This document shows positions 1 to 28,891 of a stretch of DNA of 64,000 nt, one piece after another (position 1 is the stretch's first letter; each line of letters starts with the position of its first letter). The position numbers were made by a program, and so were the translations under genes. The notes below the pieces were generated by a model. The model was not told the origin of the DNA. It saw nothing but the letters and a program-made list of their open reading frames with translations, and did no database searches. The DNA lies in the NCBI GenBank assembly GCA_008690995.1, contig VRMN01000002.1:2170001-2234000 (forward strand), given 5' to 3'. The stretch is from Porphyridium purpureum (taxonomy: Eukaryota).

Positions 1-3000
1 CCCCACCGGTCGACATAACGCGCCACATGCGCCGTGGCATAAGCGATGTCTGCTCGCGTGGTTCGGCTGAGCCACAGCAGTTGGCCAATCACTGTTCGCT
101 TGTTTGTCGGGCACGCGCGCCCGCCGGGTCCATTGTCGTCGACCCGCTCGCTGAGTGGCGTGCTGCGCACGCGCAAGTTGTCCGCGGTGTGGCCGTTCGC
201 CACATGGGTGGCGTACACCCCCGAATCCAGTATCCATCGGCCGCCGTCGCGATAGATGTGCATGCCGAGATACTTGATAGGGCGCGTACGCGCCGAGTCT
301 GCAATGTATTCGACCTTCTGGTCGATTCTGAAGACGGTCTTCAGTTGTTTGACCGCCACTCGTACCGCATCCGCATTGCCGAAGAGTGCGCCATCGTCGA
401 CGTACATGCTCAGCGTGAGCATGCTGCCGTTCGCGTCGCGGCGCCAGTACTGGTTCTTGTCCGCGTTGGATTCTTGCCATCCAAGCCGCCGGACACGCTC
501 GCGAGCGTCGTGGCTGAAGTCGCTGCCGCTCCTTTTCATTCCGTACAGAGCCTGCGGTAGCTCCACGACAGGCTCGCTGCATGCGGCCATCTTTCTGTAG
601 TCGGCTTCGCTGACTAGACCCTTCACGACCGGGACCAGGTCGCGCAGATATCCGAATGTCGGACGGCCGCCCAATGGTGCACTGGGGTAGGCACACGTTA
701 CGTCGAAGAAGGCGCCGTCGGCGGATGGTCCATGGAGCATGAGCGCCATGCTCATCGAGGCGCGGATCGCCAGCAAACCTGGTGGGCGATCAAAAGGATA
801 CGGTTCTTCGCGCGCGCGACGCCCATCGGCGTCCAGCACGACGCATCCTTGCGCGACGATGCGGCACTTCGTCTTGTGGAACGACGAAGGCATTTCTGAA
901 TTCTTCTTGTTGAAGAGGAGCTTCAACTTAACGAATTGCGCGTTCGGAACGCGCGCCGCCACTGCCTTGTCCATCGTGCGGCGGAAAGGCAGAGCGCCGG
1001 TGCTGGTGAGCGCACGAAGCTCGGATGCTAATGCATGGCGGCCGGCGGGCGTGGCCATCGCCACCGCTGTGGCCACAACTTCTGCCACCCCCAGACCTGC
1101 CGCTTCGTCCTCTGGTCCCCCTGTCGCCGCGCTTGTATACATTGCGTCGCTGCTACTCTCTGCTCGCGTCGCGTCGTTCCGCGTCGCGTCGCTCGCTGCT
1201 GCTGCGTGCACTGGAAGCACACCCAGTTCCGCTGCGCGCGCGCGTAAGCCGGCTGGTTTGCGGCCGCGCATGAAGAATGCTGGCCTACCCGCGATGGCAA
1301 GCCAGTCCTCACCAAAACGGGCAATGCCTTCGGATATGGCAATGTCCTCGGCCGGACTCCACGGCAGCTCAATGCGCCGATACTGTGCTCGTGACGCGAG
1401 CTTTCCGTGCTCGTCTCGGTAGCACTGGCAGTGCATTTGCCTGCATGCGCCGTCACCAGTGTGACGTCGGCTGGGCGCCGGACCCAAAATGCATTTCTCG
1501 CATTCGGTGCTCCCACCGACTATTTTCTTGCACTGTGTGCAGAATGCACGGTCCGGTGCATTGTCGCGTGCTCGCGACCATTGATCACCCGTCGCAATGG
1601 CCTCATCCGGAGGCCGCAGTGCCAAACGTCGCAATGGCCACTTGTCGGGAAGTGGCTTCCATTCGCCGACCTTCCTGATCGCAGATGGCCGCAAGTCGGC
1701 AATGGGCAGGGCGAGCAGGTTTATGGGCTGCCGCGGGTCATTCGGCCTCGGTGCCGTGAACCCAACGACGATTGCAGGCACGCCTTTCGGCTCAAATTTG
1801 CCGCGGCTCTCATCGTATATGAGAATGCCGCTCCCGAATGCAGGGATGGGCTTGTGCCATGTCAGACCGAGCCGTTGCTCGAAGCTGGTCTGCTCCTGCT
1901 TTGCGCCGCGCCAGGCGAGGTTTCTGGCCAGGCAAAAGTAGGCGGCGGCGAACGGATACCACGCGGTCGGCAAGCCAGACTGCATCAGCAGTGCTCGCAC
2001 TGCTCCGTTCAAGTCTGCATGCTTGCGTTCATGCGTCGCGTGCGTGTTCGCCCGGTAAGGTACACCAGTGACTTTCTTCACGCCCTTTTCCGCGATGAAT
2101 CCGTCGAATTCGCCCATGAACTCGCGGCCCTCGTCACACCGCAACACTCGTGGCCAATCACCACGTCCGCGCTGCAGCTCCGTCAACCCGCGAATGCACT
2201 CAGCGGCGGACTTGTCCGCCAGCCCAATTGCTGAGAACCACCCAGTGGCTTCGTCGAGGTGAGTGAGCAGCCACCTGCTGCCATCCACGGCTGCCAGTCC
2301 GGGATCCACAATGTCAATCGACACCACGTCGTTGAACTCGCGCGCTCGTCCGCGCTCTTTGCCAACCGAGTCGTCTCGCCTCACAGCACGCGCGCGCCGC
2401 AGCTTTGCCGCGCTGCATATTCCGCACGTGTCGCGCGACGGCATGTGCAGAACGCAATGGTCCTGCTCTACATGCTCAGCCTCGGCTGTGCCAAGACTGT
2501 GACCGCCGATGATCATTTCGAAGCGGTTGGTTCGAAGCCAATCGAGACCGATCACGAGGTCATTGTGGCCATTGTACACAATCACGTCCTGCTGCTTCTC
2601 TGCTGAATCCAGCACCGCCAGATTCACTGTCGCGCGCCCGCGAGACATGCACTGCGTGCCGTCTGCCAATCGAATGGTCAAGGCATTCGCGGTGCTATTT
2701 GTGCGCACTCGCACCATCGCGCATGCGCTCTCGCTCAGAAAGGTGTGCGTTGCGCCGGTATCGATGACTGCTTTCATCGCCCGGCCGTTCACCCAAGCAT
2801 TCACCTTGAGCAACCCTTTGCCCGCACTGGCGGTCATCAACTCGGCTCCGCCGAGATTGGCATCGCGATCATCGCGCCTGTCTGCACAGTTGTGCGTCGC
2901 TGGCCCCCACACGGAGCACCGATGGCAGTAATAGCGCCCACGCTGATTACTCTTCTTGCCATCTTGTTGCGACTTCGGCGTCTGTCGCGGTCGTGGTCTA

Positions 3001-4274
3001 CTGGCACCGCCTCGTTGCGGTGCGCCACGCTTCTGTCCGCGCCCACGCGCGTCGTTCTGGCCGCCACCACGGTTCCAACCATGCGTGCTCGGCTCTCGCC
3101 AGCCGCCGTCTCGTCCGTCCGCGCGGCTCTGCGCGTACCGCTCTGCATGATTCGCACGCAGGTTCCGCTGCGGTCCAGCTGGTGACCATTGGTCATGCTG
3201 TTGCTGTTGATACTCGTTCGAGCGATCCCGCTGGAAGTCGTTGTATCCTCGTCCGTGCACCCGTGCGCTGCTGCCGCTGGCGGTACCCAAGTCCATTGGC
3301 ACCGGACCATGCTGGTTATAGTTCATCTGGGGGTGGTATGCAGGCTGCATGGCTGACGGGTACGTTCGTGCTGTGATGGGCTGCTGGTCTCGACCACGCT
3401 TAAATATGACTTTGTCGGCAACTAAAGCCAAACGCAAAGCGTCGTCATAGGTGGGAGGGAAGTGAAGCGCTACGTGAGTGGCAATAGAAGTGTCAAGAGA
3501 TTCTGTAAAATAGTGAAGTTTATCTTTGTCTACCAAATTTGGTATACGCAGACAAACTTCACTAAATGCAGCTTCAAAATCTTGGACACTCATTGCACCC
3601 TGCTTCATCTTTTGCAGTTCATCCCGCACGTCATTTTCTGTTTCTTTTGGCTCGAAGCGCCGCTGAAGCGCGAGCAGAAACTCTTCTACCGAGGTGGGTC
3701 TCTGATCAGGTTGTAATGCCTGGTACCAGAGTTGCGCCAATCCGAAGAGGTGAGTCGAAAGCGTCGACACTGCTTCCTCTTCCTCGGTTTCCGTCCAAAG
3801 ACGGCCCTGCGACCGCCAATCCGAGCGCGCCGGGTTGTACACCCGCGAACGCGCTGCTGCCGTCCAGGTCATAATGGCCGCAGTGGATCGCTCGCCGCCA
3901 TAGTACAGCATGGCCGCAGGGCGCATGCAGCTCGGCAAAGCGCCACTTCCACCGGATCCATCGCGAAGCGCCCTCAGACGAACGTTCTCGCTCCGCAGCT
4001 CGGCGAGCTCACTCTGAACAATCGCCGTCCGGGTATTCAGTTCGGTCGCCATCTTGGCGCCGAATTCCTCCGAGAGTTGGCGATGCATTTGGGCGTATGC
4101 CGCATTCAGCATCGCCGCCATCTCTCGTTTCGTTTCCTCGCGCGCGGACTCGCGCCGCGCACTTGCTGCCGCGCCAAGGCGGGTTGCCGAGGCGTTTGCA
4201 CCACCGCGTGCCGGCGACGGTGTTGCTGGGGTACTAGCACCCGCAGCCCTATCCATGTCATATTCCATGACCAA
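1..4274 (-). CDS. Element A unit 1 Gag-Pol polyprotein, partial (3' end lies beyond the window start)
   Basis: Matches the unit 2 ORF shifted by -5636; ATG at 4274. One synonymous difference noticed, at 798. Confidence 0.9.
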   Translation of the reverse strand, partial: MVMEYDMDRAAGASTPATPSPARGGANASATRLGAAASARRESAREETKREMAAMLNAAYAQMHRQLSEEFGAKMATELNTRTAIVQSELAELRSENVRLRALRDGSGGSGALPSCMRPAAMLYYGGERSTAAIMTWTAAARSRVYNPARSDWRSQGRLWTETEEEEAVSTLSTHLFGLAQLWYQALQPDQRPTSVEEFLLALQRRFEPKETENDVRDELQKMKQGAMSVQDFEAAFSEVCLRIPNLVDKDKLHYFTESLDTSIATHVALHFPPTYDDALRLALVADKVIFKRGRDQQPITARTYPSAMQPAYHPQMNYNQHGPVPMDLGTASGSSARVHGRGYNDFQRDRSNEYQQQQHDQWSPAGPQRNLRANHAERYAQSRADGRDGGWREPSTHGWNRGGGQNDARGRGQKRGAPQRGGASRPRPRQTPKSQQDGKKSNQRGRYYCHRCSVWGPATHNCADRRDDRDANLGGAELMTASAGKGLLKVNAWVNGRAMKAVIDTGATHTFLSESACAMVRVRTNSTANALTIRLADGTQCMSRGRATVNLAVLDSAEKQQDVIVYNGHNDLVIGLDWLRTNRFEMIIGGHSLGTAEAEHVEQDHCVLHMPSRDTCGICSAAKLRRARAVRRDDSVGKERGRAREFNDVVSIDIVDPGLAAVDGSRWLLTHLDEATGWFSAIGLADKSAAECIRGLTELQRGRGDWPRVLRCDEGREFMGEFDGFIAEKGVKKVTGVPYRANTHATHERKHADLNGAVRALLMQSGLPTAWYPFAAAYFCLARNLAWRGAKQEQTSFEQRLGLTWHKPIPAFGSGILIYDESRGKFEPKGVPAIVVGFTAPRPNDPRQPINLLALPIADLRPSAIRKVGEWKPLPDKWPLRRLALRPPDEAIATGDQWSRARDNAPDRAFCTQCKKIVGGSTECEKCILGPAPSRRHTGDGACRQMHCQCYRDEHGKLASRAQYRRIELPWSPAEDIAISEGIARFGEDWLAIAGRPAFFMRGRKPAGLRARAAELGVLPVHAAAASDATRNDATRAESSSDAMYTSAATGGPEDEAAGLGVAEVVATAVAMATPAGRHALASELRALTSTGALPFRRTMDKAVAARVPNAQFVKLKLLFNKKNSEMPSSFHKTKCRIVAQGCVVLDADGRRAREEPYPFDRPPGLLAIRASMSMALMLHGPSADGAFFDVTCAYPSAPLGGRPTFGYLRDLVPVVKGLVSEADYRKMAACSEPVVELPQALYGMKRSGSDFSHDARERVRRLGWQESNADKNQYWRRDANGSMLTLSMYVDDGALFGNADAVRVAVKQLKTVFRIDQKVEYIADSARTRPIKYLGMHIYRDGGRWILDSGVYATHVANGHTADNLRVRSTPLSERVDDNGPGGRACPTNKRTVIGQLLWLSRTTRADIAYATAHVARYVDRW

Positions 4275-4502
4275 ACACTGGGCGCGTCGCGCTCACCAGT
4301 TGCGCTTCGAGCGCCTCTTTTTTCCTTCTCGATGTTCGCGGCGCCGATCAGCGTCTTGGCTGTCGCGCTGCCACAGTCGCTTTTCCAAAGCGTGATCGAG
4401 GGTAGAGTTGGGGAATGACCGAATGATAGAAACACTACCACAATAGGTGGTTAGTCAAGCAAGCAAGAAGAAGAAAGATGAGGGAAACACCGCAGCGCAA
4501 AG

Positions 4503-4518
4503 GCTGGGCTCATAACCC
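4503..4518 (-). promoter_or_regulatory. Primer-binding site GGGTTATGAGCCCAGC, complementary to the anticodon arm of initiator tRNA-Met (half-tRNA priming); also at 10139-10154 and 28565-28580
   Basis: The plus strand reads GCTGGGCTCATAACCC, the tRNA-iMet anticodon stem-loop with the CAT anticodon, 2 nt from the LTR end. Drosophila copia and yeast Ty5 use this type of PBS. Confidence 0.85.
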
Positions 4519-4520
4519 TT

Positions 4521-4817
4521 TGATGATAGCGTCTTCGTGAAGCACGCGTATACCAAACGTGTACCAATAGTAAACTACTGGTGGCTAGCTGAAGCAAGAG
4601 GTCCACAACAAGACGACTTTACTCCTTAACACAACCTAGCTCTTGCCTCAAAAGGAGACAGAGCGCCGACTCGTCGGCCGTCTCTCACACTCTAATGATA
4701 TACTACTGTGGTTAACCATTACGGTCACCAACCAACGGAGAGTTGTCATCATTAAGTATTTGATGACTCCTCATCACGTCATCAGGCAGGCAGAGAGGGA
4801 TGACTATATTCCACGCA
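4521..4817 (-). repeat. LTR of element A (297 bp, TG...CA), shared by units 1 and 2
   Basis: Bounded by the PBS (2-nt spacer) on one side and the PPT on the other; repeated at 10157-10453 and 28583-28877. Confidence 0.9.
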
Positions 4818-4833
4818 CCCCCTCATCACTTCT
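4818..4833 (-). promoter_or_regulatory. Polypurine tract of element A (AGAAGTGATGAGGGGG); also at 10454-10469
   Basis: Purine-rich run between the pol stop codon and the LTR start. Confidence 0.8.
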
Positions 4834-4855
4834 GCGCTGGCTGCAAAGGAACGAA

Positions 4856-7800
4856 TCACACTCGCTCGACAAGGTGCCAGCGGGTGTACGGATCACTGTC
4901 ACACGACATCTTCTCATCATCATGGCTGTACGCATAGCCGCGCATGCCAGCGTCATCGTCGCAGTCGTCGGGCTGCATGAGCATCGCGAAGGCGTTGCCA
5001 CGGTTTGCGGCGGAGCGAGCATGCGTCATACGCTGGGCGATGCCAAGGGATAAGCTTGCACCGTACAGGCCCCACGCGGCTGCATGGCCGCGAAACACGT
5101 CGGTGGCAATCGGCTTCGTCAAGCCGTCAGCGATGTTGTCGCGCGTAGCGACATAGACGAACCTGACGAGTCCGTCCGCTGCTATCTCGTGCAACCATCT
5201 CAGAGAGATGCGCTGCATCTTTGGCGCATGCAGTAGCCGGTCACTGTGGCCGCGCTCCACCGCGCGCAAAGTCGACTCGTTGTCGCACCGCACAACGGTC
5301 GGAGGCCAGCGCCTCAAAAGTTCTTCCGCCAGTGTCGCCACTGGGAACACGCTGCCTTGCGCTGCGTCGTGCAGCGCTACCAACTCAGCCTCGGTCGTCG
5401 AGGTGCTGACGCGCCGCTGGCGCCGACTGGTCCAGTCTACAAGGTGTCGGCATCTGCCATTCGATATGAAGAGCACGGCGCCGCTCGTGGATGACGGTGC
5501 CGAGAAGTCGGCATCAGCCCACGCGTGCAACCGAACGTCGCGACTGCCTGTCGCGGGTATGTCGTATTGCAGACAGACGTCCGCATGCTTCTTCAGATAC
5601 CCGACGATCTCGTCGAGCGCGCGATCCGCGCTTGGCCCCCACCGGTCGACATAACGCGCCACATGCGCCGTGGCATAAGCGATGTCTGCTCGCGTGGTTC
5701 GGCTGAGCCACAGCAGTTGGCCAATCACTGTTCGCTTGTTTGTCGGGCACGCGCGCCCGCCGGGTCCATTGTCGTCGACCCGCTCGCTGAGTGGCGTGCT
5801 GCGCACGCGCAAGTTGTCCGCGGTGTGGCCGTTCGCCACATGGGTGGCGTACACCCCCGAATCCAGTATCCATCGGCCGCCGTCGCGATAGATGTGCATG
5901 CCGAGATACTTGATAGGGCGCGTACGCGCCGAGTCTGCAATGTATTCGACCTTCTGGTCGATTCTGAAGACGGTCTTCAGTTGTTTGACCGCCACTCGTA
6001 CCGCATCCGCATTGCCGAAGAGTGCGCCATCGTCGACGTACATGCTCAGCGTGAGCATGCTGCCGTTCGCGTCGCGGCGCCAGTACTGGTTCTTGTCCGC
6101 GTTGGATTCTTGCCATCCAAGCCGCCGGACACGCTCGCGAGCGTCGTGGCTGAAGTCGCTGCCGCTCCTTTTCATTCCGTACAGAGCCTGCGGTAGCTCC
6201 ACGACAGGCTCGCTGCATGCGGCCATCTTTCTGTAGTCGGCTTCGCTGACTAGACCCTTCACGACCGGGACCAGGTCGCGCAGATATCCGAATGTCGGAC
6301 GGCCGCCCAATGGTGCACTGGGGTAGGCACACGTTACGTCGAAGAAGGCGCCGTCGGCGGATGGTCCATGGAGCATGAGCGCCATGCTCATCGAGGCGCG
6401 GATCGCCAGCAAACCTGGTGGGCGATCAAAAGGGTACGGTTCTTCGCGCGCGCGACGCCCATCGGCGTCCAGCACGACGCATCCTTGCGCGACGATGCGG
6501 CACTTCGTCTTGTGGAACGACGAAGGCATTTCTGAATTCTTCTTGTTGAAGAGGAGCTTCAACTTAACGAATTGCGCGTTCGGAACGCGCGCCGCCACTG
6601 CCTTGTCCATCGTGCGGCGGAAAGGCAGAGCGCCGGTGCTGGTGAGCGCACGAAGCTCGGATGCTAATGCATGGCGGCCGGCGGGCGTGGCCATCGCCAC
6701 CGCTGTGGCCACAACTTCTGCCACCCCCAGACCTGCCGCTTCGTCCTCTGGTCCCCCTGTCGCCGCGCTTGTATACATTGCGTCGCTGCTACTCTCTGCT
6801 CGCGTCGCGTCGTTCCGCGTCGCGTCGCTCGCTGCTGCTGCGTGCACTGGAAGCACACCCAGTTCCGCTGCGCGCGCGCGTAAGCCGGCTGGTTTGCGGC
6901 CGCGCATGAAGAATGCTGGCCTACCCGCGATGGCAAGCCAGTCCTCACCAAAACGGGCAATGCCTTCGGATATGGCAATGTCCTCGGCCGGACTCCACGG
7001 CAGCTCAATGCGCCGATACTGTGCTCGTGACGCGAGCTTTCCGTGCTCGTCTCGGTAGCACTGGCAGTGCATTTGCCTGCATGCGCCGTCACCAGTGTGA
7101 CGTCGGCTGGGCGCCGGACCCAAAATGCATTTCTCGCATTCGGTGCTCCCACCGACTATTTTCTTGCACTGTGTGCAGAATGCACGGTCCGGTGCATTGT
7201 CGCGTGCTCGCGACCATTGATCACCCGTCGCAATGGCCTCATCCGGAGGCCGCAGTGCCAAACGTCGCAATGGCCACTTGTCGGGAAGTGGCTTCCATTC
7301 GCCGACCTTCCTGATCGCAGATGGCCGCAAGTCGGCAATGGGCAGGGCGAGCAGGTTTATGGGCTGCCGCGGGTCATTCGGCCTCGGTGCCGTGAACCCA
7401 ACGACGATTGCAGGCACGCCTTTCGGCTCAAATTTGCCGCGGCTCTCATCGTATATGAGAATGCCGCTCCCGAATGCAGGGATGGGCTTGTGCCATGTCA
7501 GACCGAGCCGTTGCTCGAAGCTGGTCTGCTCCTGCTTTGCGCCGCGCCAGGCGAGGTTTCTGGCCAGGCAAAAGTAGGCGGCGGCGAACGGATACCACGC
7601 GGTCGGCAAGCCAGACTGCATCAGCAGTGCTCGCACTGCTCCGTTCAAGTCTGCATGCTTGCGTTCATGCGTCGCGTGCGTGTTCGCCCGGTAAGGTACA
7701 CCAGTGACTTTCTTCACGCCCTTTTCCGCGATGAATCCGTCGAATTCGCCCATGAACTCGCGGCCCTCGTCACACCGCAACACTCGTGGCCAATCACCAC

Positions 7801-9910
7801 GTCCGCGCTGCAGCTCCGTCAACCCGCGAATGCACTCAGCGGCGGACTTGTCCGCCAGCCCAATTGCTGAGAACCACCCAGTGGCTTCGTCGAGGTGAGT
7901 GAGCAGCCACCTGCTGCCATCCACGGCTGCCAGTCCGGGATCCACAATGTCAATCGACACCACGTCGTTGAACTCGCGCGCTCGTCCGCGCTCTTTGCCA
8001 ACCGAGTCGTCTCGCCTCACAGCACGCGCGCGCCGCAGCTTTGCCGCGCTGCATATTCCGCACGTGTCGCGCGACGGCATGTGCAGAACGCAATGGTCCT
8101 GCTCTACATGCTCAGCCTCGGCTGTGCCAAGACTGTGACCGCCGATGATCATTTCGAAGCGGTTGGTTCGAAGCCAATCGAGACCGATCACGAGGTCATT
8201 GTGGCCATTGTACACAATCACGTCCTGCTGCTTCTCTGCTGAATCCAGCACCGCCAGATTCACTGTCGCGCGCCCGCGAGACATGCACTGCGTGCCGTCT
8301 GCCAATCGAATGGTCAAGGCATTCGCGGTGCTATTTGTGCGCACTCGCACCATCGCGCATGCGCTCTCGCTCAGAAAGGTGTGCGTTGCGCCGGTATCGA
8401 TGACTGCTTTCATCGCCCGGCCGTTCACCCAAGCATTCACCTTGAGCAACCCTTTGCCCGCACTGGCGGTCATCAACTCGGCTCCGCCGAGATTGGCATC
8501 GCGATCATCGCGCCTGTCTGCACAGTTGTGCGTCGCTGGCCCCCACACGGAGCACCGATGGCAGTAATAGCGCCCACGCTGATTACTCTTCTTGCCATCT
8601 TGTTGCGACTTCGGCGTCTGTCGCGGTCGTGGTCTACTGGCACCGCCTCGTTGCGGTGCGCCACGCTTCTGTCCGCGCCCACGCGCGTCGTTCTGGCCGC
8701 CACCACGGTTCCAACCATGCGTGCTCGGCTCTCGCCAGCCGCCGTCTCGTCCGTCCGCGCGGCTCTGCGCGTACCGCTCTGCATGATTCGCACGCAGGTT
8801 CCGCTGCGGTCCAGCTGGTGACCATTGGTCATGCTGTTGCTGTTGATACTCGTTCGAGCGATCCCGCTGGAAGTCGTTGTATCCTCGTCCGTGCACCCGT
8901 GCGCTGCTGCCGCTGGCGGTACCCAAGTCCATTGGCACCGGACCATGCTGGTTATAGTTCATCTGGGGGTGGTATGCAGGCTGCATGGCTGACGGGTACG
9001 TTCGTGCTGTGATGGGCTGCTGGTCTCGACCACGCTTAAATATGACTTTGTCGGCAACTAAAGCCAAACGCAAAGCGTCGTCATAGGTGGGAGGGAAGTG
9101 AAGCGCTACGTGAGTGGCAATAGAAGTGTCAAGAGATTCTGTAAAATAGTGAAGTTTATCTTTGTCTACCAAATTTGGTATACGCAGACAAACTTCACTA
9201 AATGCAGCTTCAAAATCTTGGACACTCATTGCACCCTGCTTCATCTTTTGCAGTTCATCCCGCACGTCATTTTCTGTTTCTTTTGGCTCGAAGCGCCGCT
9301 GAAGCGCGAGCAGAAACTCTTCTACCGAGGTGGGTCTCTGATCAGGTTGTAATGCCTGGTACCAGAGTTGCGCCAATCCGAAGAGGTGAGTCGAAAGCGT
9401 CGACACTGCTTCCTCTTCCTCGGTTTCCGTCCAAAGACGGCCCTGCGACCGCCAATCCGAGCGCGCCGGGTTGTACACCCGCGAACGCGCTGCTGCCGTC
9501 CAGGTCATAATGGCCGCAGTGGATCGCTCGCCGCCATAGTACAGCATGGCCGCAGGGCGCATGCAGCTCGGCAAAGCGCCACTTCCACCGGATCCATCGC
9601 GAAGCGCCCTCAGACGAACGTTCTCGCTCCGCAGCTCGGCGAGCTCACTCTGAACAATCGCCGTCCGGGTATTCAGTTCGGTCGCCATCTTGGCGCCGAA
9701 TTCCTCCGAGAGTTGGCGATGCATTTGGGCGTATGCCGCATTCAGCATCGCCGCCATCTCTCGTTTCGTTTCCTCGCGCGCGGACTCGCGCCGCGCACTT
9801 GCTGCCGCGCCAAGGCGGGTTGCCGAGGCGTTTGCACCACCGCGTGCCGGCGACGGTGTTGCTGGGGTACTAGCACCCGCAGCCCTATCCATGTCATATT
9901 CCATGACCAA
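4856..9910 (-). CDS. Element A unit 2 intact single-ORF polyprotein, 1684 aa: Gag - aspartic protease - integrase - Cys-rich module - Myb/SANT-like domain - Copia-type RT - RNase H
   Basis: Gag with GPVPMDLG. PR VIDTGAT...DLVIGLDWL. INT HCVLH..CGIC, SIDIVD, RCDEGREF, HERK, KFEPKG..IVVGF. RT KCRIVAQG, FDVTCAY, QALYGMKRSG, MYVDD. RNase H WADADF, STTEAE, CDN, NIADGLTK. Confidence 0.95.
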   Translation of the reverse strand: MVMEYDMDRAAGASTPATPSPARGGANASATRLGAAASARRESAREETKREMAAMLNAAYAQMHRQLSEEFGAKMATELNTRTAIVQSELAELRSENVRLRALRDGSGGSGALPSCMRPAAMLYYGGERSTAAIMTWTAAARSRVYNPARSDWRSQGRLWTETEEEEAVSTLSTHLFGLAQLWYQALQPDQRPTSVEEFLLALQRRFEPKETENDVRDELQKMKQGAMSVQDFEAAFSEVCLRIPNLVDKDKLHYFTESLDTSIATHVALHFPPTYDDALRLALVADKVIFKRGRDQQPITARTYPSAMQPAYHPQMNYNQHGPVPMDLGTASGSSARVHGRGYNDFQRDRSNEYQQQQHDQWSPAGPQRNLRANHAERYAQSRADGRDGGWREPSTHGWNRGGGQNDARGRGQKRGAPQRGGASRPRPRQTPKSQQDGKKSNQRGRYYCHRCSVWGPATHNCADRRDDRDANLGGAELMTASAGKGLLKVNAWVNGRAMKAVIDTGATHTFLSESACAMVRVRTNSTANALTIRLADGTQCMSRGRATVNLAVLDSAEKQQDVIVYNGHNDLVIGLDWLRTNRFEMIIGGHSLGTAEAEHVEQDHCVLHMPSRDTCGICSAAKLRRARAVRRDDSVGKERGRAREFNDVVSIDIVDPGLAAVDGSRWLLTHLDEATGWFSAIGLADKSAAECIRGLTELQRGRGDWPRVLRCDEGREFMGEFDGFIAEKGVKKVTGVPYRANTHATHERKHADLNGAVRALLMQSGLPTAWYPFAAAYFCLARNLAWRGAKQEQTSFEQRLGLTWHKPIPAFGSGILIYDESRGKFEPKGVPAIVVGFTAPRPNDPRQPINLLALPIADLRPSAIRKVGEWKPLPDKWPLRRLALRPPDEAIATGDQWSRARDNAPDRAFCTQCKKIVGGSTECEKCILGPAPSRRHTGDGACRQMHCQCYRDEHGKLASRAQYRRIELPWSPAEDIAISEGIARFGEDWLAIAGRPAFFMRGRKPAGLRARAAELGVLPVHAAAASDATRNDATRAESSSDAMYTSAATGGPEDEAAGLGVAEVVATAVAMATPAGRHALASELRALTSTGALPFRRTMDKAVAARVPNAQFVKLKLLFNKKNSEMPSSFHKTKCRIVAQGCVVLDADGRRAREEPYPFDRPPGLLAIRASMSMALMLHGPSADGAFFDVTCAYPSAPLGGRPTFGYLRDLVPVVKGLVSEADYRKMAACSEPVVELPQALYGMKRSGSDFSHDARERVRRLGWQESNADKNQYWRRDANGSMLTLSMYVDDGALFGNADAVRVAVKQLKTVFRIDQKVEYIADSARTRPIKYLGMHIYRDGGRWILDSGVYATHVANGHTADNLRVRSTPLSERVDDNGPGGRACPTNKRTVIGQLLWLSRTTRADIAYATAHVARYVDRWGPSADRALDEIVGYLKKHADVCLQYDIPATGSRDVRLHAWADADFSAPSSTSGAVLFISNGRCRHLVDWTSRRQRRVSTSTTEAELVALHDAAQGSVFPVATLAEELLRRWPPTVVRCDNESTLRAVERGHSDRLLHAPKMQRISLRWLHEIAADGLVRFVYVATRDNIADGLTKPIATDVFRGHAAAWGLYGASLSLGIAQRMTHARSAANRGNAFAMLMQPDDCDDDAGMRGYAYSHDDEKMSCDSDPYTRWHLVERV

Positions 9911-10156
9911 ACACTGGGCGCGTCGCGCTCACCAGTTGCGCTTCGAGCGCCTCTTTTTTCCTTCTCGATGTTCGCGGCGCCGATCAGCGTCTTGGCTGTC
10001 GCGCTGCCACAGTCGCTTTTCCAAAGCGTGATCGAGGGTAGAGTTGGGGAATGACCGAATGATAGAAACACTACCACAATAGGTGGTTAGTCAAGCAAGC
10101 AAGAAGAAGAAAGATGAGGGAAACACCGCAGCGCAAAGGCTGGGCTCATAACCCTT

Positions 10157-10453
10157 TGATGATAGCGTCTTCGTGAAGCACGCGTATACCAAACGTGTAC
10201 CAATAGTAAACTACTGGTGGCTAGCTGAAGCAAGAGGTCCACAACAAGACGACTTTACTCCTTAACACAACCTAGCTCTTGCCTCAAAAGGAGACAGAGC
10301 GCCGACTCGTCGGCCGTCTCTCACACTCTAATGATATACTACTGTGGTTAACCATTACGGTCACCAACCAACGGAGAGTTGTCATCATTAAGTATTTGAT
10401 GACTCCTCATCACGTCATCAGGCAGGCAGAGAGGGATGACTATATTCCACGCA
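10157..10453 (-). repeat. LTR of element A shared by units 2 and 3
   Basis: Identical by eye to 4521-4817. Confidence 0.9.
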
Positions 10454-10491
10454 CCCCCTCATCACTTCTGCGCTGGCTGCAAAGGAACGAA

Positions 10492-13400
10492 TCACACTCG
10501 CTCGACAAGGTGCCAGCGGGTGTACGGATCACTGTCACACGACATCTTCTCATCATCATGGCTGTACGCATAGCCGCGCATGCCAGCGTCATCGTCGCAG
10601 TCGTCGGGCTGCATGAGCATCGCGAAGGCGTTGCCACGGTTTGCGGCGGAGCGAGCATGCGTCATACGCTGGGCGATGCCAAGGGATAAGCTTGCACCGT
10701 ACAGGCCCCACGCGGCTGCATGGCCGCGAAACACGTCGGTGGCAATCGGCTTCGTCAAGCCGTCAGCGATGTTGTCGCGCGTAGCGACATAGACGAACCT
10801 GACGAGTCCGTCCGCTGCTATCTCGTGCAACCATCTCAGAGAGATGCGCTGCATCTTTGGCGCATGCAGTAGCCGGTCACTGTGGCCGCGCTCCACCGCG
10901 CGCAAAGTCGACTCGTTGTCGCACCGCACAACGGTCGGAGGCCAGCGCCTCAAAAGTTCTTCCGCCAGTGTCGCCACTGGGAACACGCTGCCTTGCGCTG
11001 CGTCGTGCAGCGCTACCAACTCAGCCTCGGTCGTCGAGGTGCTGACGCGCCGCTGGCGCCGACTGGTCCAGTCTACAAGGTGTCGGCATCTGCCATTCGA
11101 TATGAAGAGCACGGCGCCGCTCGTGGATGACGGTGCCGAGAAGTCGGCATCAGCCCACGCGTGCAACCGAACGTCGCGACTGCCTGTCGCGGGTATGTCG
11201 TATTGCAGACAGACGTCCGCATGCTTCTTCAGATACCCGACGATCTCGTCGAGCGCGCGATCCGCGCTTGGCCCCCACCGGTCGACATAACGCGCCACAT
11301 GCGCCGTGGCATAAGCGATGTCTGCTCGCGTGGTTCGGCTGAGCCACAGCAGTTGGCCAATCACTGTTCGCTTGTTTGTCGGGCACGCGCGCCCGCCGGG
11401 TCCATTGTCGTCGACCCGCTCGCTGAGTGGCGTGCTGCGCACGCGCAAGTTGTCCGCGGTGTGGCCGTTCGCCACATGGGTGGCGTACACCCCCGAATCC
11501 AGTATCCATCGGCCGCCGTCGCGATAGATGTGCATGCCGAGATACTTGATAGGGCGCGTACGCGCCGAGTCTGCAATGTATTCGACCTTCTGGTCGATTC
11601 TGAAGACGGTCTTCAGTTGTTTGACCGCCACTCGTACCGCATCCGCATTGCCGAAGAGTGCGCCATCGTCGACGTACATGCTCAGCGTGAGCATGCTGCC
11701 GTTCGCGTCGCGGCGCCAGTACTGGTTCTTGTCCGCGTTGGATTCTTGCCATCCAAGCCGCCGGACACGCTCGCGAGCGTCGTGGCTGAAGTCGCTGCCG
11801 CTCCTTTTCATTCCGTACAGAGCCTGCGGTAGCTCCACGACAGGCTCGCTGCATGCGGCCATCTTTCTGTAGTCGGCTTCGCTGACTAGACCCTTCACGA
11901 CCGGGACCAGGTCGCGCAGATATCCGAATGTCGGACGGCCGCCCAATGGTGCACTGGGGTAGGCACACGTTACGTCGAAGAAGGCGCCGTCGGCGGATGG
12001 TCCATGGAGCATGAGCGCCATGCTCATCGAGGCGCGGATCGCCAGCAAACCTGGTGGGCGATCAAAAGGGTACGGTTCTTCGCGCGCGCGACGCCCATCG
12101 GCGTCCAGCACGACGCATCCTTGCGCGACGATGCGGCACTTCGTCTTGTGGAACGACGAAGGCATTTCTGAATTCTTCTTGTTGAAGAGGAGCTTCAACT
12201 TAACGAATTGCGCGTTCGGAACGCGCGCCGCCACTGCCTTGTCCATCGTGCGGCGGAAAGGCAGAGCGCCGGTGCTGGTGAGCGCACGAAGCTCGGATGC
12301 TAATGCATGGCGGCCGGCGGGCGTGGCCATCGCCACCGCTGTGGCCACAACTTCTGCCACCCCCAGACCTGCCGCTTCGTCCTCTGGTCCCCCTGTCGCC
12401 GCGCTTGTATACATTGCGTCGCTGCTACTCTCTGCTCGCGTCGCGTCGTTCCGCGTCGCGTCGCTCGCTGCTGCTGCGTGCACTGGAAGCACACCCAGTT
12501 CCGCTGCGCGCGCGCGTAAGCCGGCTGGTTTGCGGCCGCGCATGAAGAATGCTGGCCTACCCGCGATGGCAAGCCAGTCCTCACCAAAACGGGCAATGCC
12601 TTCGGATATGGCAATGTCCTCGGCCGGACTCCACGGCAGCTCAATGCGCCGATACTGTGCTCGTGACGCGAGCTTTCCGTGCTCGTCTCGGTAGCACTGG
12701 CAGTGCATTTGCCTGCATGCGCCGTCACCAGTGTGACGTCGGCTGGGCGCCGGACCCAAAATGCATTTCTCGCATTCGGTGCTCCCACCGACTATTTTCT
12801 TGCACTGTGTGCAGAATGCACGGTCCGGTGCATTGTCGCGTGCTCGCGACCATTGATCACCCGTCGCAATGGCCTCATCCGGAGGCCGCAGTGCCAAACG
12901 TCGCAATGGCCACTTGTCGGGAAGTGGCTTCCATTCGCCGACCTTCCTGATCGCAGATGGCCGCAAGTCGGCAATGGGCAGGGCGAGCAGGTTTATGGGC
13001 TGCCGCGGGTCATTCGGCCTCGGTGCCGTGAACCCAACGACGATTGCAGGCACGCCTTTCGGCTCAAATTTGCCGCGGCTCTCATCGTATATGAGAATGC
13101 CGCTCCCGAATGCAGGGATGGGCTTGTGCCATGTCAGACCGAGCCGTTGCTCGAAGCTGGTCTGCTCCTGCTTTGCGCCGCGCCAGGCGAGGTTTCTGGC
13201 CAGGCAAAAGTAGGCGGCGGCGAACGGATACCACGCGGTCGGCAAGCCAGACTGCATCAGCAGTGCTCGCACTGCTCCGTTCAAGTCTGCATGCTTGCGT
13301 TCATGCGTCGCGTGCGTGTTCGCCCGGTAAGGTACACCAGTGACTTTCTTCACGCCCTTTTCCGCGATGAATCCGTCGAATTCGCCCATGAACTCGCGGC

Positions 13401-14527
13401 CCTCGTCACACCGCAACACTCGTGGCCAATCACCACGTCCGCGCTGCAGCTCCGTCAACCCGCGAATGCACTCAGCGGCGGACTTGTCCGCCAGCCCAAT
13501 TGCTGAGAACCACCCAGTGGCTTCGTCGAGGTGAGTGAGCAGCCACCTGCTGCCATCCACGGCTGCCAGTCCGGGATCCACAATGTCAATCGACACCACG
13601 TCGTTGAACTCGCGCGCTCGTCCGCGCTCTTTGCCAACCGAGTCGTCTCGCCTCACAGCACGCGCGCGCCGCAGCTTTGCCGCGCTGCATATTCCGCACG
13701 TGTCGCGCGACGGCATGTGCAGAACGCAATGGTCCTGCTCTACATGCTCAGCCTCGGCTGTGCCAAGACTGTGACCGCCGATGATCATTTCGAAGCGGTT
13801 GGTTCGAAGCCAATCGAGACCGATCACGAGGTCATTGTGGCCATTGTACACAATCACGTCCTGCTGCTTCTCTGCTGAATCCAGCACCGCCAGATTCACT
13901 GTCGCGCGCCCGCGAGACATGCACTGCGTGCCGTCTGCCAATCGAATGGTCAAGGCATTCGCGGTGCTATTTGTGCGCACTCGCACCATCGCGCATGCGC
14001 TCTCGCTCAGAAAGGTGTGCGTTGCGCCGGTATCGATGACTGCTTTCATCGCCCGGCCGTTCACCCAAGCATTCACCTTGAGCAACCCTTTGCCCGCACT
14101 GGCGGTCATCAACTCGGCTCCGCCGAGATTGGCATCGCGATCATCGCGCCTGTCTGCACAGTTGTGCGTCGCTGGCCCCCACACGGAGCACCGATGGCAG
14201 TAATAGCGCCCACGCTGATTACTCTTCTTGCCATCTTGTTGCGACTTCGGCGTCTGTCGCGGTCGTGGTCTACTGGCACCGCCTCGTTGCGGTGCGCCAC
14301 GCTTCTGTCCGCGCCCACGCGCGTCGTTCTGGCCGCCACCACGGTTCCAACCATGCGTGCTCGGCTCTCGCCAGCCGCCGTCTCGTCCGTCCGCGCGGCT
14401 CTGCGCGTACCGCTCTGCATGATTCGCACGCAGGTTCCGCTGCGGTCCAGCTGGTGACCATTGGTCATGCTGTTGCTGTTGATACTCGTTCGAGCGATCC
14501 CGCTGGAAGTCGTTGTATCCTCGTCCG
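10492..14527 (-). pseudogene. Element A unit 3, 3' half (NC-PR-INT-Myb-RT-RH, frame open), separated from gag by insertion of B
   Basis: Matches unit 2 up to the TCCG target duplication at 14524-14527. Confidence 0.9.
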
Positions 14528-14815
14528 TGCCGTGATATGGTCCTGAATGGCCCACTCACTCCCCTCCTCCGCTAGCCCGGCCGCACGGAGAACCTATACC
14601 CCAATCCTGCTGGCCCCATCGGCCCTCTCTTTTACTCTTGCTAGATCGCCGCGACGGCGGTCTTAAATACCCTTCTCTACCCTACGCTAACCGTTAGACT
14701 GTTTAAGAACCTAAGAATAACCGCTGCCCGGTACGGACAAGGATTGTTATGGTACAGTGCGGGGCAGTGCTGTACAGTGCGTGGAGGGGTACGGCGGAGA
14801 GAGCGAGTCATGACA
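14528..14815 (-). repeat. 3' LTR of element B
   Basis: Identical by eye to 27026-27313; preceded on the minus strand by the G-rich tract TTAGGGGTTAGTGGGGATG (about 14816-14834). Confidence 0.93.
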
Positions 14816-15730
14816 CATCCCCACTAACCCCTAAGCCGCTTGCGCTAGTGCGCGGCAGAGGAACTTGGACAGTCTGTCGGAGAAAACCGTAAAACCGGAA
14901 CCGTGCAAAGTTACACGCGAAAATGTGCAACGACTGTCTGAAAAAACGAGATCGAAAGACGAGGAAAAGGACGAGTAATGCTTCGGATCGAGCGCGAAAC
15001 GGACGCAGTAGGTACAATACTGTACCTCAAGTACTGAACACCAGGTGAACACCCGAGCCAGAGCATCACGAAGATGTCGAAGGCCTCGAACACTGCGAAC
15101 ACTTATTGCGCGGGCGAACAAACGCCAGACGACTCGTGAAGCTCTCCGGGACATCATCCAAGGAAATGACAAACACTGGCCCTAGGAACTCGAAGAGCGG
15201 TTCGCGCATTCGCTCGCGCGCGGAGTGCGACTTTTGCGGATTTCCCGGCCGGAAATTGTGAATGCGATTACCTTCGCAAAGATGAAAGCAACGAGAAAAC
15301 GCTTTCACATCGTTCACTTTCTAGGCTGACACAACGCACATGCCAATGTTTAGCCGGGTCTGCCGGTGAACTCAAGGAGAACTCGAAATGCACCTTCTTT
15401 TGTAGTCGAAAGTTTCATCGTCGAGGCAAACTCGATGCGCGCACTCTTTCTCTGCGTTTGAGTTGACGTAGGTGACACAAATCGGTGCAGCCTCCATCTC
15501 GACATCGAGGGCAATGCGCGAACGCTCGTTTCGGCTCCACGACGCCTCCCTGCGCGATGCGAGAACTGTCGTTCTCTGCTGTTCGACTTGTTTTCGACTG
15601 CGCATCGGCGCTTCGACGAAATGAATGTGGGATTCGCTGTCGCACACTGTGTACATTCAAGGCGCAACCGCGCTGGATTTGAGAGACTCGAAGTCCGCGT
15701 TCAAACTCACGAGGAAAGACTCGCGTGCGC

Positions 15731-18700
15731 TTATTGGAACCGACGACCAGACCGTGATCGAAGGACATCAGCGGGATTTTGCGCAGACTCGAGAAACTCG
15801 GCAACCAATGTTTCCGGCAAGTCCTCGGACTTCTCCCAAGTCCATTCAGAGCGCTTGGCCCCGTACCACGCGACGAGAAACTCGGTGGAGCCATCGATGA
15901 GGCGCTGTTTCTGCAAACTTGCTATCTCAGAGAGGACACTGTCGCGACGCTCTCCATCCGCGTTGAAGTCATCCCTGAGTTCTACAGATTGATCAACACG
16001 CTTCAGCCTGTCAAGATGCACGAAGAATGTCTCGAAGGCATTGCGGATCGTAGCGCGGGCGCCATCGATGACTTCGAGTATATACGGACCGACCCACGGG
16101 CTCTCGAGTTTACGACCTTGAAGTGTACTCACCCCACGCCAGAGCATTACCGCGTCGCCCTCCGAGAGGCGCTGGCCTTGCTTTGTGACCTTTTCGGCAC
16201 TGCGCCTCGCATCCTTGTCGTGGCTTTTATCCGATGCGCGCAACGCTACTTGATGCATCATCCGAATCCTACCGCGTAGCTGATAGCCAAATTCCTCGAG
16301 GCTGTCCGTTTCCAGCTCGGCGTCGATCGCTGGCTGAGAATAGTCATTCGCAGTACGTCCAAACATAGCTTCGTATGGACTCACGCCAGTCGATGAATGT
16401 CGCGACGAATTATAAGCGTGCACGGATAACGGAAGCCACAGATCCCACCCGATAGACGCGTCGTGATCTGCCATCATGCCGGATAACAAGCCGCACAGCG
16501 TTCGGTTATAGCGTTCCACGACTCCGTTTGCTTTTGGATTATGTGCCATAGTAAAGACCTTCTTGATGCCGAGAAGCTGGCTGACTCGTGACAAAAACTC
16601 GGATCGAAATGCAGGTCCGTTGTCACTAAGAAGGTTCTCGGGGGGCCCAAACGGTGCGACCCATACGTGCAGAAAAGCTTCCACCGCAGATCGAGCTGAC
16701 TCGTCGACCACCGGTGCTGCGACGGTAAAACGAGTGAACAGATCAGCGACCACCAAGACCTTGGTATATCCGCGAGGTGTCTTCGGGGAAATCGTGAGGA
16801 GATCGACTGCAACAAGCTCGAAGCGTCGCGTTGGCCGACGTCTGCCGATGACTACCTGCTGCCTTCGCAGACCCTTTCGCCTTGAGCAAAACCGACATGA
16901 TTGGATGAATTCGCTGACATCCGAGGTCCAACCCGGCCAGTACCATGACGCATCCGCGATCCTTGAGATCGTCTTAGCCGCGCCCATATGCCCGCCTGCA
17001 CCCGTTGAATGATAGTATCCCAGAACACGACTCACGAACGCATCCGGAACCACACGCCGAGGCTTTTTTGTTGCCGCCATCAGAATGCCCGCCTCGTTCC
17101 AGAAGTATTCCGGGTCGCTGTACTGTGGTGTGCTTCGAGCGAGGTTCTCCATTTCTTTGGCGATGAGCTCATCTCTCGGGTACGCTGCCTTCAGCTCTTC
17201 GTCAGTTGGTAGTTCGTGTGCCGTGTTGCTGTCTTCACTCACAGCTGTGACGAGGTACGCCACGCGGTCGCCACGAGAACTCCTGCTTTCTTGTTCGTCG
17301 AGATTCATACGCGAGAGTGCGTCAGGTACCTTATTCGACGCACCCTTCACGTACTCAATAACGAACGAATAATCTGCCAAAGCCAATGCCCACCTTGCTA
17401 GACGGCCCCTCGGCTCCCGCAGATTCAACAACCATCGGAGCGGCTCGTGATCAGAGCGGACTATAATCGACTCACCGTATAGATAATGCCGACACTTACG
17501 TACCGCCCACACAACCGCAAGGCACTCTAGTTCTGTCACGGCGTAGTTCTTCTCCGCGGCAGTCAATGACCGCGATAGAAAGCACACCGGTCGATACTCG
17601 CTCGAAACGCGCTGATACAGCGCTGCTCCGAGTCCCGTCAACGAGGCATCTGTATCAAGGACCCACTCTGCTCCCGCAGATGGCTGATACAAAACCACCG
17701 TTGGGTCCGTCAGCGCCGACTTAAGGGCCTCGAATGCTAGCTTCTGCCCAGCGCCAAACCGATTGGCCCAATCGCTGCATTCAACGACCTGCTTCTTCGA
17801 ATGTTTTTTTGCGGACATGGCGAGACCTTCGAGAGACGCACGCAACGGAGCTGCGACGCGCTCGAAGTTCGGAACGAAGTCACGAAACCAGCCCACAACG
17901 CCTAGAAACCGCTGAACTTCTGTCGGATTTCTCGGTTCGGTCCATTGTCGGATGACCTCGATGTTTCGCTCTTTCGGGCGAATCTTACCATTTTGCACTT
18001 GGTGACCAAGAAATTCGATTTTGGTGCACATGAAGGAGCACTTCTTCAAAGAAAATGTGAGACCTTCTTTTTCGAAGCGTTCCAGAATTTGATCCAGTAT
18101 TTGAATGTGATCCTCTCCAGACGATGAACCTACGATGAGGTCATCGATGTAAATGAGTGCGTGTTTCCAGCGCAGGTCACCGAGGACCGTGTTCATCAAT
18201 CGTTGGAATGTTGCTGGGCTATTCGACATGCCTTGACCAATGACGCAGTATCGGAAAAGCCCCAGTGGGGTAATCATCGCGGTCAAGTCTCGGGAATCAG
18301 CGTGCAGCGGGATCTGAAAGAACCCGTCAGTCAAATCGAGAGTACTGAACAACGAATATCGACCAGCCCAATCGAGGCATTCATGCACGAGTGGGATCGG
18401 GTACTTGTCCTTCACCGTAATGGCGTTCAGGTTCCTGAAATCCGTAGTTAATCGCCACGCACCCGTCGGTTTCCGGATCAAGACGTTTGCCGAGGCAAAC
18501 GGGCCATTGCACGGTTCCAAGACATGATGATCAAGGAGCTTGCGTACCATTGTTTCTTCGGCTTCGCGCTCTGCCTCCGACCGTCGTCGCAATTTCGCCG
18601 CGGGAAAGGTCGCGCCCGGCTCCACCCGGATAACGTGCTCGACAGAGCGGGCCCTTCCGGCTTCTGCTCGGAACACTCGCCACCGCTTTTTGAGAACCCC

Positions 18701-19552
18701 ACGAATCTTCTCCCGAGTGCCGGAGTCGAGGATATGACCGAGGTCAAGCGCATTGATGAGATCGAGAGTCTCTCGTCCCATTTGCGATTCGGTCACTCGA
18801 ATACTCGCCAGCTTTTGCCCAGCGCGGATGCAGACTGGCTCCTTCGACTTGTTCTGTATAGTCCACGTTCTCTGATGTGTGTCCACAACACCTTCTGGAA
18901 GCTCGATGAGAATTTCACATTGTCCGAGTCCCGGAATCTTTGTATCCGTAACGCTTCGGATGAACGACCTTTCCTTCGTCTTATTTGTGAAGCACGGAAT
19001 ATGTTCGCCGTTCCGCATCTCGACGATTCGGTTCTTGAAGTTGAGCGAATGCGAGTGACGGTGCCAGAATTCCATGCCAATGATCAGGTCTTCCGCCAAT
19101 TCTTCGACGACGATGCATCGAAGCTTCGTTCGAAGTTGTCCCAGCCTTACCTCGACGAGTGTCTCCCATGCCGGGCCCATGTTTCCTCCCTGCGCGTGGT
19201 CCACGCGCGTACCAGTAGGCTCCATCGTGGCACCCCATCTTTCGGCGACCGTCCGCGACGTGTACGAGTACCCCGTGGCTCCCGTGTCCACTAGCGCTAT
19301 TATCGGAAGCCACAGTCCGGAAGAATCGAGGACGCGGATTGCAACAAAGGGTCGGCGGTCGATACTCCCACGCACTGAACAAAGGACTGCCTTGTCGAAT
19401 ATCTTCACAGTCCCGTACTCCCATGACACCGGTAGTAAATCGGATGGATCAGCCGGTGTGTCGCACTTTGACAAGCTCGGAACGGCCTCGATGCTCATCG
19501 CCTGTGCCGGATGCGCCCCTGCATCCGCTGATCCTTTTTGCTTTCCAGCGAG
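15731..19552 (-). CDS. Element B Pol: protease, RT, RNase H, integrase, GPY motif, C-terminal chromodomain; in frame with gag after one UGA (first ATG at 19498)
   Basis: LVDTGAT; LDLTDGFFQI, YIDD; TDAS, ELECLA, SDH, DALSR; H-H-C-C zinc finger, VDL, SDNG, NGVVER; WVGPY; EFLVAWYG...WTWE. Confidence 0.95.
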   Translation of the reverse strand, partial: LAGKQKGSADAGAHPAQAMSIEAVPSLSKCDTPADPSDLLPVSWEYGTVKIFDKAVLCSVRGSIDRRPFVAIRVLDSSGLWLPIIALVDTGATGYSYTSRTVAERWGATMEPTGTRVDHAQGGNMGPAWETLVEVRLGQLRTKLRCIVVEELAEDLIIGMEFWHRHSHSLNFKNRIVEMRNGEHIPCFTNKTKERSFIRSVTDTKIPGLGQCEILIELPEGVVDTHQRTWTIQNKSKEPVCIRAGQKLASIRVTESQMGRETLDLINALDLGHILDSGTREKIRGVLKKRWRVFRAEAGRARSVEHVIRVEPGATFPAAKLRRRSEAEREAEETMVRKLLDHHVLEPCNGPFASANVLIRKPTGAWRLTTDFRNLNAITVKDKYPIPLVHECLDWAGRYSLFSTLDLTDGFFQIPLHADSRDLTAMITPLGLFRYCVIGQGMSNSPATFQRLMNTVLGDLRWKHALIYIDDLIVGSSSGEDHIQILDQILERFEKEGLTFSLKKCSFMCTKIEFLGHQVQNGKIRPKERNIEVIRQWTEPRNPTEVQRFLGVVGWFRDFVPNFERVAAPLRASLEGLAMSAKKHSKKQVVECSDWANRFGAGQKLAFEALKSALTDPTVVLYQPSAGAEWVLDTDASLTGLGAALYQRVSSEYRPVCFLSRSLTAAEKNYAVTELECLAVVWAVRKCRHYLYGESIIVRSDHEPLRWLLNLREPRGRLARWALALADYSFVIEYVKGASNKVPDALSRMNLDEQESRSSRGDRVAYLVTAVSEDSNTAHELPTDEELKAAYPRDELIAKEMENLARSTPQYSDPEYFWNEAGILMAATKKPRRVVPDAFVSRVLGYYHSTGAGGHMGAAKTISRIADASWYWPGWTSDVSEFIQSCRFCSRRKGLRRQQVVIGRRRPTRRFELVAVDLLTISPKTPRGYTKVLVVADLFTRFTVAAPVVDESARSAVEAFLHVWVAPFGPPENLLSDNGPAFRSEFLSRVSQLLGIKKVFTMAHNPKANGVVERYNRTLCGLLSGMMADHDASIGWDLWLPLSVHAYNSSRHSSTGVSPYEAMFGRTANDYSQPAIDAELETDSLEEFGYQLRGRIRMMHQVALRASDKSHDKDARRSAEKVTKQGQRLSEGDAVMLWRGVSTLQGRKLESPWVGPYILEVIDGARATIRNAFETFFVHLDRLKRVDQSVELRDDFNADGERRDSVLSEIASLQKQRLIDGSTEFLVAWYGAKRSEWTWEKSEDLPETLVAEFLESAQNPADVLRSRSGRRFQ

Positions 19553-21165: not shown

Positions 21166-21284
21166 TCTCCCCCCCTCTTGGCTCGACGTCTCGGCGAGAC
21201 TCCAAACTAAGTTGCATTCTTGGCTCGAGGAACCCGCGCTCCGGGAGAAAACCTCTGCCTAGCAAACTTCTCACGATTCCCAAG

Positions 21285-28877: not shown

Positions 28878-28891
28878 ATAGTGTACACGCA

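Follow-up and report, generated by a model that had tools for sequence, protein, structure and literature searches.

A Myb-type repeat at the integrase tail of Porphyridium purpureum LTR retrotransposons as a candidate reader of a host DNA word

The integrase of an LTR retrotransposon of Porphyridium purpureum is followed by a stretch that, on the evidence of its relatives' profiles and of a predicted fold, is a real single-repeat Myb domain, closest to the single repeats of TRF/Tbf1 type. The insertions of this family, P0002, are non-random (3/3 resolved 3' flanks, a small sample). A probability of roughly 0.5 is given to the reading that the Myb domain binds the word GTACAG and thereby sets the insertion, in one orientation and with a 5-base duplication 14 bases off. 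The DNA analysed (the window) was a stretch of 64,000 nt of P. purpureum contig VRMN01000002.1.

Organization of the element

The element is encoded in one open frame on the minus strand (4856-9928, 1690 codons, ATG at 9904), in which Gag, protease, integrase, reverse transcriptase (RT) and RNase H stand in copia order. The Gag capsid (9044-9904, minus strand, from the ATG at 9904; Pfam Retrotrans_gag and Ty3_capsid) and the aspartic protease (8168-8449, minus strand; Pfam gag-asp_proteas and RVP_2) are of Ty3/gypsy type. They are followed, all on the minus strand, by the HHCC finger and catalytic core of a copia-type integrase (7502-8095; Pfam rve, copia integrases outscoring gypsy ones), an SH3-like barrel as the integrase C-terminal domain (7250-7501; AF2 model and fold search, with Pfam SH3_retrovirus matches in relatives), a Cys/His-rich probable zinc-binding motif, CxxC-x8-CxxC-x9-H-x5-C-x4-CxC, to which no Pfam entry was matched (7058-7180), the Myb-type (TRF/Tbf1-like) single repeat of the integrase tail (6857-7018; identical copies at 1221-1382 and 12493-12654), a copia-type RT (5891-6670; Pfam RVT_2) and RNase H (5111-5524; assigned from sequence motifs and alignment to relatives).

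The LTR of 298 bp (4518-4815, minus strand) is common to two tandem units and is found in identical form at 10154-10451 and 28580-28877; its boundaries were fixed by the contig and by loose ends in public runs. It is abutted on the same strand by a primer-binding site (4504-4517), which we take to be of the half-tRNA-iMet type, and by a polypurine tract (4816-4830). On the element strand the LTR ends read CG...AG, with TG two bases and CA three bases inside, and it is these outer ends that the primer-binding site and polypurine tract abut. The order PR-INT-RT-RH and the copia-type RT and integrase are those of a Ty1/copia LTR retrotransposon, and a primer-binding site, a polypurine tract, LTRs and a 5-bp duplication (the last from one flank pairing across different runs) are present; a copia-type Gag and protease and TG...CA ends are lacking. 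As judged from these matches, the element is a chimera in which a Gag and protease of Ty3/gypsy type are joined to an integrase, RT and RNase H of copia type. The same layout was seen in P0003, P0022, P0058, P0179 and P0187, and the Gag-protease regions of P0072 and of farther relatives look copia-like. A copia element of a red alga whose integrase is gypsy-like has reportedly been described, to go by a title; the P0002 element differs from it in being the reverse kind of chimera.

RNA reads, which were placed on gag, the LTR and the host gene, covered gag to a depth of about 1-4. An exact search with the LTR end found no match in collections of metagenome, viral and prokaryote sequences. Elsewhere in the window, a weak match to the N-terminal part of the centriole protein SAS-6 (E 2e-6) was seen at 59136-61007 on the plus strand; red algae are not known to have centrioles.

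Identity of the integrase-tail domain

A Myb/SANT-like domain between integrase and RT had been proposed in a first-pass annotation. The peptide was confirmed at 6860-7009 on the minus strand (50 residues, 974-1023 of the open frame; identical copies at 1224-1373 and 12496-12645), and the profile of its relatives makes it a real Myb repeat. When a 60-residue piece was compared with Pfam Myb_DNA-binding, it was matched with E 1.5e-4 and 22.2 bits over profile positions 3-28 of 46 only, and the whole P0002 protein with E 0.018. The curated Pfam cut-off of 24.4 bits was reached neither by the P0002 domain nor by the whole P0023 protein (24.3 bits). Since the lone domain scores below this cut-off, it is the relatives' profiles that lift the Myb identity beyond chance: a profile built without P0002 and its sister family scores the P0002 domain at 32.9 bits (E 3e-11, 12 proteins), and eight of the 11 aligned family domains have a Pfam Myb match at E<=1, the best at 5.5e-7. 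Of the profile searches that the annotation had asked for, the one against Pfam fell short of the cut-off on the single domain, and the one of the family profile against solved structures reached Myb and telomere proteins at 1e-6. Among these structures, a profile of the 11 domains matched c-Myb (E 7.9e-7), Schizosaccharomyces pombe Tbf1 (E 9.9e-7, positions 10-58 of 65, the whole repeat), TRF1 and TRF2 (E 1e-3 to 1e-2) and RSC8 (E 5e-5, first half only); the best match of the P0187 domain alone was TRF1 (E 5e-4).

The predicted structure agrees. In an AF2 model of barrel, finger and Myb domain (pLDDT by block 92, 89, 65, 85 and 86) the three-helix helix-turn-helix that had been anticipated was obtained, with three confident helices at 181-194, 197-202 and 214-223. 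The predicted fold was matched to the Myb domain of SNAPc (Z 6.0, rmsd 2.5, 50 residues), to TRF1 (Z 5.8, rmsd 2.6, 51 of 52 residues) and to Timeless (Z 5.8), with rmsd values of 2.5-2.9 over the three; a Z near 6 is modest, though in agreement with the sequence result. The isolated domain gave a weak AlphaFold model, with a pLDDT of 64 and all its fold matches at Z 2.6 or below; with the larger model, c-Myb came only at rank 41 in Foldseek (E 0.3). A further structure-database look-up listed the SH3-like barrel only. The ESM Atlas held no match for the window region; for P0187 it gave one lead at 0.78 with Myb families, which was not counted as evidence.

The first two Trp residues of the aromatic core are conserved and the third, rightly reported as lacking, is Ala, Leu or Thr across the family domains. 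This is no defect, since S. pombe Tbf1 also has Ala there. The P0002 domain has a basic arm, and its last 18 residues include five basic and one acidic; both traits are seen in 8/10 domains counted. The two domains of clade C are acidic. SANT domains, which bind histone tails, have an acidic surface and no basic recognition helix. That description does not fit P0002 and fits only the clade-C domains.

In the telobox, the K-D-x-W/A-R residues are the readers of telomeric bases. The helix-3 Asp is found in 0/11 family domains and the last Arg in 2/11, and P0002 has neither. As stated in the available text of PMC3598436, it is through conserved helix-3 residues that a telobox reads telomeric DNA. 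From its residues, then, the P0002 Myb domain is judged not to be a telobox; of the suggested TRF/telobox resemblance, the likeness to Tbf1 and TRF1 in profile and fold stands and the telobox itself falls.

Insertion sites

Insertion ends were taken from eight placements of seven public runs (X7 twice), with the loose ends of contigs and reads as host flanks. On the 3' side three unrelated host sequences were resolved, those of X5/X7, X11 and X22; the flanks of X5, X7 and X11 are single contigs, and that of X22 is the majority sequence implied by 26 RNA reads (agreement 0.74). CTGTAC occupies letters 6-11 of 30 in 3/3 of these flanks; read on the element strand, GTACAG lies 20-25 bases downstream of the LTR end, each time in the same orientation. 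The chance of a shared run of at least six in three host 30-mers of the window is 1e-6 to 5e-6, for a pattern that was noticed after both sides had been viewed and with n=3. The X22 flank ends in TGGAG, and the same five letters open an X7 flank on the other side, which gives a 5-base duplication separated from GTACAG by 14 bases. The presumed target duplications differ among insertion sites. Two further candidates were dropped: a fourth 3' flank (X6) with the motif in its consensus proved to be a letter-wise mix of two contigs, one of them a known flank, and a second apparent duplication (X7, place 28878) was compatible only.

The mirror motif at the mirror place was found in 0/4 resolved 5' flanks, one of which has the motif a base closer; no simple repeat array was seen in the seven resolved flanks, and the motif was not seen at the equivalent place in the flanks of the nested gypsy elements. 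The host gene next to the insertion in the window belongs to the flavin amine-oxidase family; its first in-frame ATG is at 29010, with the insertion some 130 bp upstream, and the junction between insertion and host DNA is bridged in X7. Three copies of an 11-base unit were observed between the outer LTR and this gene (28893-28925). Of the earlier suggestion that the domain steers integration, the non-random insertion is borne out and the telomeric, centromeric or self targets are not.

It seems unlikely to us that the domain is simply carried along and that the motif in the flanks is a coincidence of a small sample or a trace of survival in motif-rich intergenic DNA. The sample is indeed n=3, and some lineages have lost the domain. 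Survival, however, would give neither base-exact spacing nor one orientation (the chance of a shared run of at least six is 1.7e-5 for 30-mers from near such motifs), and the domain is conserved amid unconserved linkers in families that are 30-50% identical.

Within the host and gypsy sequence of the window, GTACAG is most often extended to GTACAGTG. Of the 12 matches to GTACAGTG in the window, 10 fall outside long reading frames of the host, four of these in gypsy LTRs, and the bare hexamer is mildly enriched outside long frames (0.87 vs 0.66 per kb). Clusters of GTACAGTG were observed in intergenic DNA and gypsy LTRs at 34098, 44789-44826, 46910-46929, 14752-14772 and 27250-27270. It is a candidate for a general promoter element of Porphyridium; a literature search by titles and starts of abstracts gave nothing obviously on the motif.

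Since GTACAGTG has the look of a motif general to the non-coding DNA of this genome, present also in gypsy LTRs, a host protein that binds it probably exists. Such a factor, sitting on GTACAG(TG) in promoters, might tether the integration complex, with the Myb-like domain as a docking surface or a SANT-like chromatin contact. The targeting of LTR elements is known to run mostly through host proteins (10.1101/2021.07.27.453949, PMC5371812, in the parts available), a fixed spacing from a motif can stem from a host protein, as with Tf1 and Sap1 (PMC5371812), and the acidic domains of clade C would suit a docking role. On the other hand, a host protein bound to the motif, just 14 bases from the cut, would be expected to compete for the site, and the P0002 domain, with its basic arm and helix 3, is nearer to the DNA-binding TRF/Tbf1 domains than to SANT domains such as that of RSC8. 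We regard this host tether as the strongest of the alternatives, at somewhat less than half the weight of direct reading by the Myb domain.

Tandem array

The element belongs to a head-to-tail array on the minus strand (1-14530) of at least three units of 5636 bp, with a single mismatch over 8894 bp. An interruption in gag splits the third unit, whose 5' part with the outermost LTR lies at 27310-28877 (minus strand); the 5 bp at 28878-28882 (plus strand) are presumed to be the target duplication of the array as a whole, the partner flank being expected outside the window. Two nested Ty3/gypsy elements were observed in the gag of the third unit (14527-27313, with a 4-base duplication), the first with a weak chromodomain match at its integrase end (E 0.0013).

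The junctions of the array read PPT-LTR-PBS, with a single shared LTR, no duplication and no motif, so that the Myb domain is not needed for the array, of which it had been proposed as the cause. Tandems with a single LTR are the form made by integrase-independent recombination and are common in LTR elements (PMC11042837, in the part available); those of Tf1/Tf2, Ty1 and Ty5 have units separated by a single LTR, as here (PMC11042837), and no difference from the P0002 array was seen. The near-identity of the units makes an assembly loop possible as well. A contig joint going back 5636 bp was present in all four runs examined; it is no proof of a tandem, as contigs of any two-LTR element give such a joint. 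The array likely arose separately from targeting, by LTR recombination or as an assembly loop.

These junctions also bear on the idea that a telobox directs the element to telomeric or centromeric sequence or to copies of itself and in this way produces the array. The best sequence matches do include Tbf1 and TRF1, and the element does form an array; but the Asp is missing in 11/11 domains and the following Arg in 9/11, the flanks are unrelated, do not look telomeric or like repeat units and in one case lie 130 bp upstream of a host gene, and the junctions have the recombination form (PMC11042837). Of all the explanations weighed, this is the least credible, with hardly any weight left to it.

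Distribution and history of the domain

The Myb domain stands at the same place in at least 11 families, among the best 150 of 18937 integrase-RNase H matches and later profile searches: P0002, P0003, P0022, P0023, P0024, P0026, P0032, P0048, P0036, P0072 and P0187, of which P0034 and P0177 are near copies. All of them (11/11) are named P. purpureum, and the expected conservation in relatives is borne out to that extent; organism names cover 22 of the matched proteins. The protein cluster of P0002 has 16 members, and those with a name are again P. purpureum. The domain is lacking in P0025, P0033, P0037 and P0179, also named P. purpureum, and likewise in P0021, P0030, P0186 and more distant relatives, which are unnamed and come from other sources, and the Myb profile is absent from eight metagenome loci (22-27% identity) found with the family alignment. 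A profile search of short proteins returned the domain in 0/852 candidates and one of longer proteins in 11/7994, of which ten belong to P. purpureum elements and one is a Myb protein with several repeats; a donor gene was not found among these 852 and 7994 proteins.

Between P0002 and its sister family (47% overall), 27/53 residues of the Myb domain are identical, against 3/23, 2/10 and 8/60 in the linkers that flank it. The turn and the start of helix 3 form a run of 11 residues, the longest identical run in the 1682-residue alignment, longer than the runs around the active sites of integrase and RT. Helix 3 differs between Myb-bearing families; this and the acidic domains of clade C mean that one function may not hold for all families. 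Within family P0002, 37 variants of the open frame were listed (19 synonymous, 18 non-synonymous) and 2/53 Myb residues vary, a variation too low for selection on the domain to be demonstrable.

In a careful RT-RNase H tree of 22 rows, from which the fragments P0035, P0048 and P0186 were left out, Myb carriers fall into three clades with non-carriers nested among them. A single origin without loss or swap was rejected (AU p 6e-53). The tree would fit either an early gain with repeated losses or swapping between families. As the close relatives P0021 and P0025 are without the domain, it is dispensable. The integrase that precedes it in P0072 is a canonical copia one. P0025 and P0187, sisters with close RTs, were seen to have a coiled-coil-like stretch and a Myb domain, respectively, at the same place.

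The Cys-rich finger is, from its distribution, older and wider spread than the Myb domain. The motif at 7058-7180 (minus strand) is kept in about 20 clusters of diverged relatives, which come from several sources, and is likely a zinc-binding module not yet described for these integrases. It is conceivable, though improbable and somewhat less likely than the host tether, that the finger or the SH3 barrel reads the motif and that the Myb domain lends non-specific DNA affinity or binds cDNA ends. The finger adjoins the Myb domain in P0002 and is far more widely conserved, and finger and Myb are used together by R2 (PMC11204384, in the part available). Yet only its Cys/His positions are kept (13/44 identical to the sister family), it is lost in the Myb-bearing P0022, P0023, P0026 and P0187, and CTGTAC/GTACAG is absent from the P0002 LTR.

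Proposed mechanism

Direct reading by the Myb domain would proceed as follows. The conserved repeat follows the integrase core, SH3 barrel and Cys-rich finger. From the Ty1/copia layout, the protease would cut downstream of the domain and leave it on the integrase, so that the domain, which lies between SH3 barrel and RT, would belong to the C-terminal region of the integrase. GTACAG then stands at a fixed distance and orientation from unrelated duplications, as seen on three flanks. A one-sided motif at a fixed distance, beyond the catalytic footprint and beside a free duplication sequence, would call for a tether rather than a symmetric preference of the catalytic core, and the basic arm and helix 3 of the domain would suit a DNA reader. 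Since GTACAG(TG) lies mostly outside long reading frames, insertions would be steered away from the coding DNA of a gene-dense genome. It counts against the proposal that the flanks with the motif come from the P0002 family alone. The fuller version, that a re-specified Myb of TRF/Tbf1 type reads a host promoter word directly and that the module was passed among lineages and lost from others, perhaps with words of their own, is put forward tentatively, a shade below even odds.

It is an open question how LTR elements find safe places to insert where genes are dense, and the answers known so far have host proteins or chromatin marks as landmarks. A further targeting route would be added by a DDE integrase that brings its own Myb-type DNA reader and leaves a base-exact signature; if true, this would be a case in nature of an integrase directed autonomously by sequence, convergent with the finger-Myb arrangement of R2, and a natural model for the retargeting of integrases by a fused DNA-binding domain. 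The system would be tractable, with one 55-residue domain, one six-base word and one spacing. Within one alga, 11 families that differ in their third helices and four that lack the domain form a natural panel, and P. purpureum can be transformed (PMC10866757, in the part available).

Comparison with known systems

No Myb domain on an LTR integrase was described in the literature searched (titles and starts of abstracts, with subscription journals, Repbase-type databases and supplements outside the search), and the word 'Myb' is absent from the main text of PMC2774666, its additional files lying outside that check. A Myb-bearing LTR integrase with a base-exact insertion signature is, within that search, a targeting device not found described, for which the present flanks are a first small sample.

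The P0002 domain shares with TRF1/TRF2 and Tbf1 a single Myb repeat, a basic N-terminal arm and a long loop between helices 2 and 3, and with Tbf1 also the Ala for the third Trp; unlike them it has no helix-3 Asp/Arg and no telomeric flanks, and it is part of a polyprotein. The R2 non-LTR retrotransposons, in which a zinc finger and a Myb domain bind target DNA (PMC11204384), have in common with P0002 a finger followed by a Myb domain. In R2, however, these are N-terminal domains that serve one 28S target and target-primed reverse transcription, whereas P0002 has a DDE integrase, a C-terminal Myb domain and many targets, and no homology is claimed.

Other modules are known from integrase tails. 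Chromodomains occur there, including those of the CoDi-A Ty1/copia elements of diatoms (PMC2774666, in the part available); in the Ty3/gypsy chromoviruses and in CoDi-A a host chromatin or DNA module has been captured at the integrase C-terminus, as would be the case in P0002, and CoDi-A demonstrates that elements of copia order can capture such a module (PMC2774666). The P0002 module differs from these in being a Myb, and its insertion signature is a DNA word at a fixed distance. Short host-binding motifs are another kind of tail module (10.1101/2021.07.27.453949, PMC5371812), and the target choice of Tal1/EVD is set by the C-terminal region of the integrase (PMC11735389, in the part available). 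Tf1 (with Sap1), Ty3 (with TFIIIB), Ty1, Ty5 and Tal1/EVD resemble P0002 in having targets set by the integrase and position-specific insertion near a bound DNA site; their landmark, however, is host proteins or chromatin, whereas the P0002 integrase itself carries a fold of DNA-binding type.
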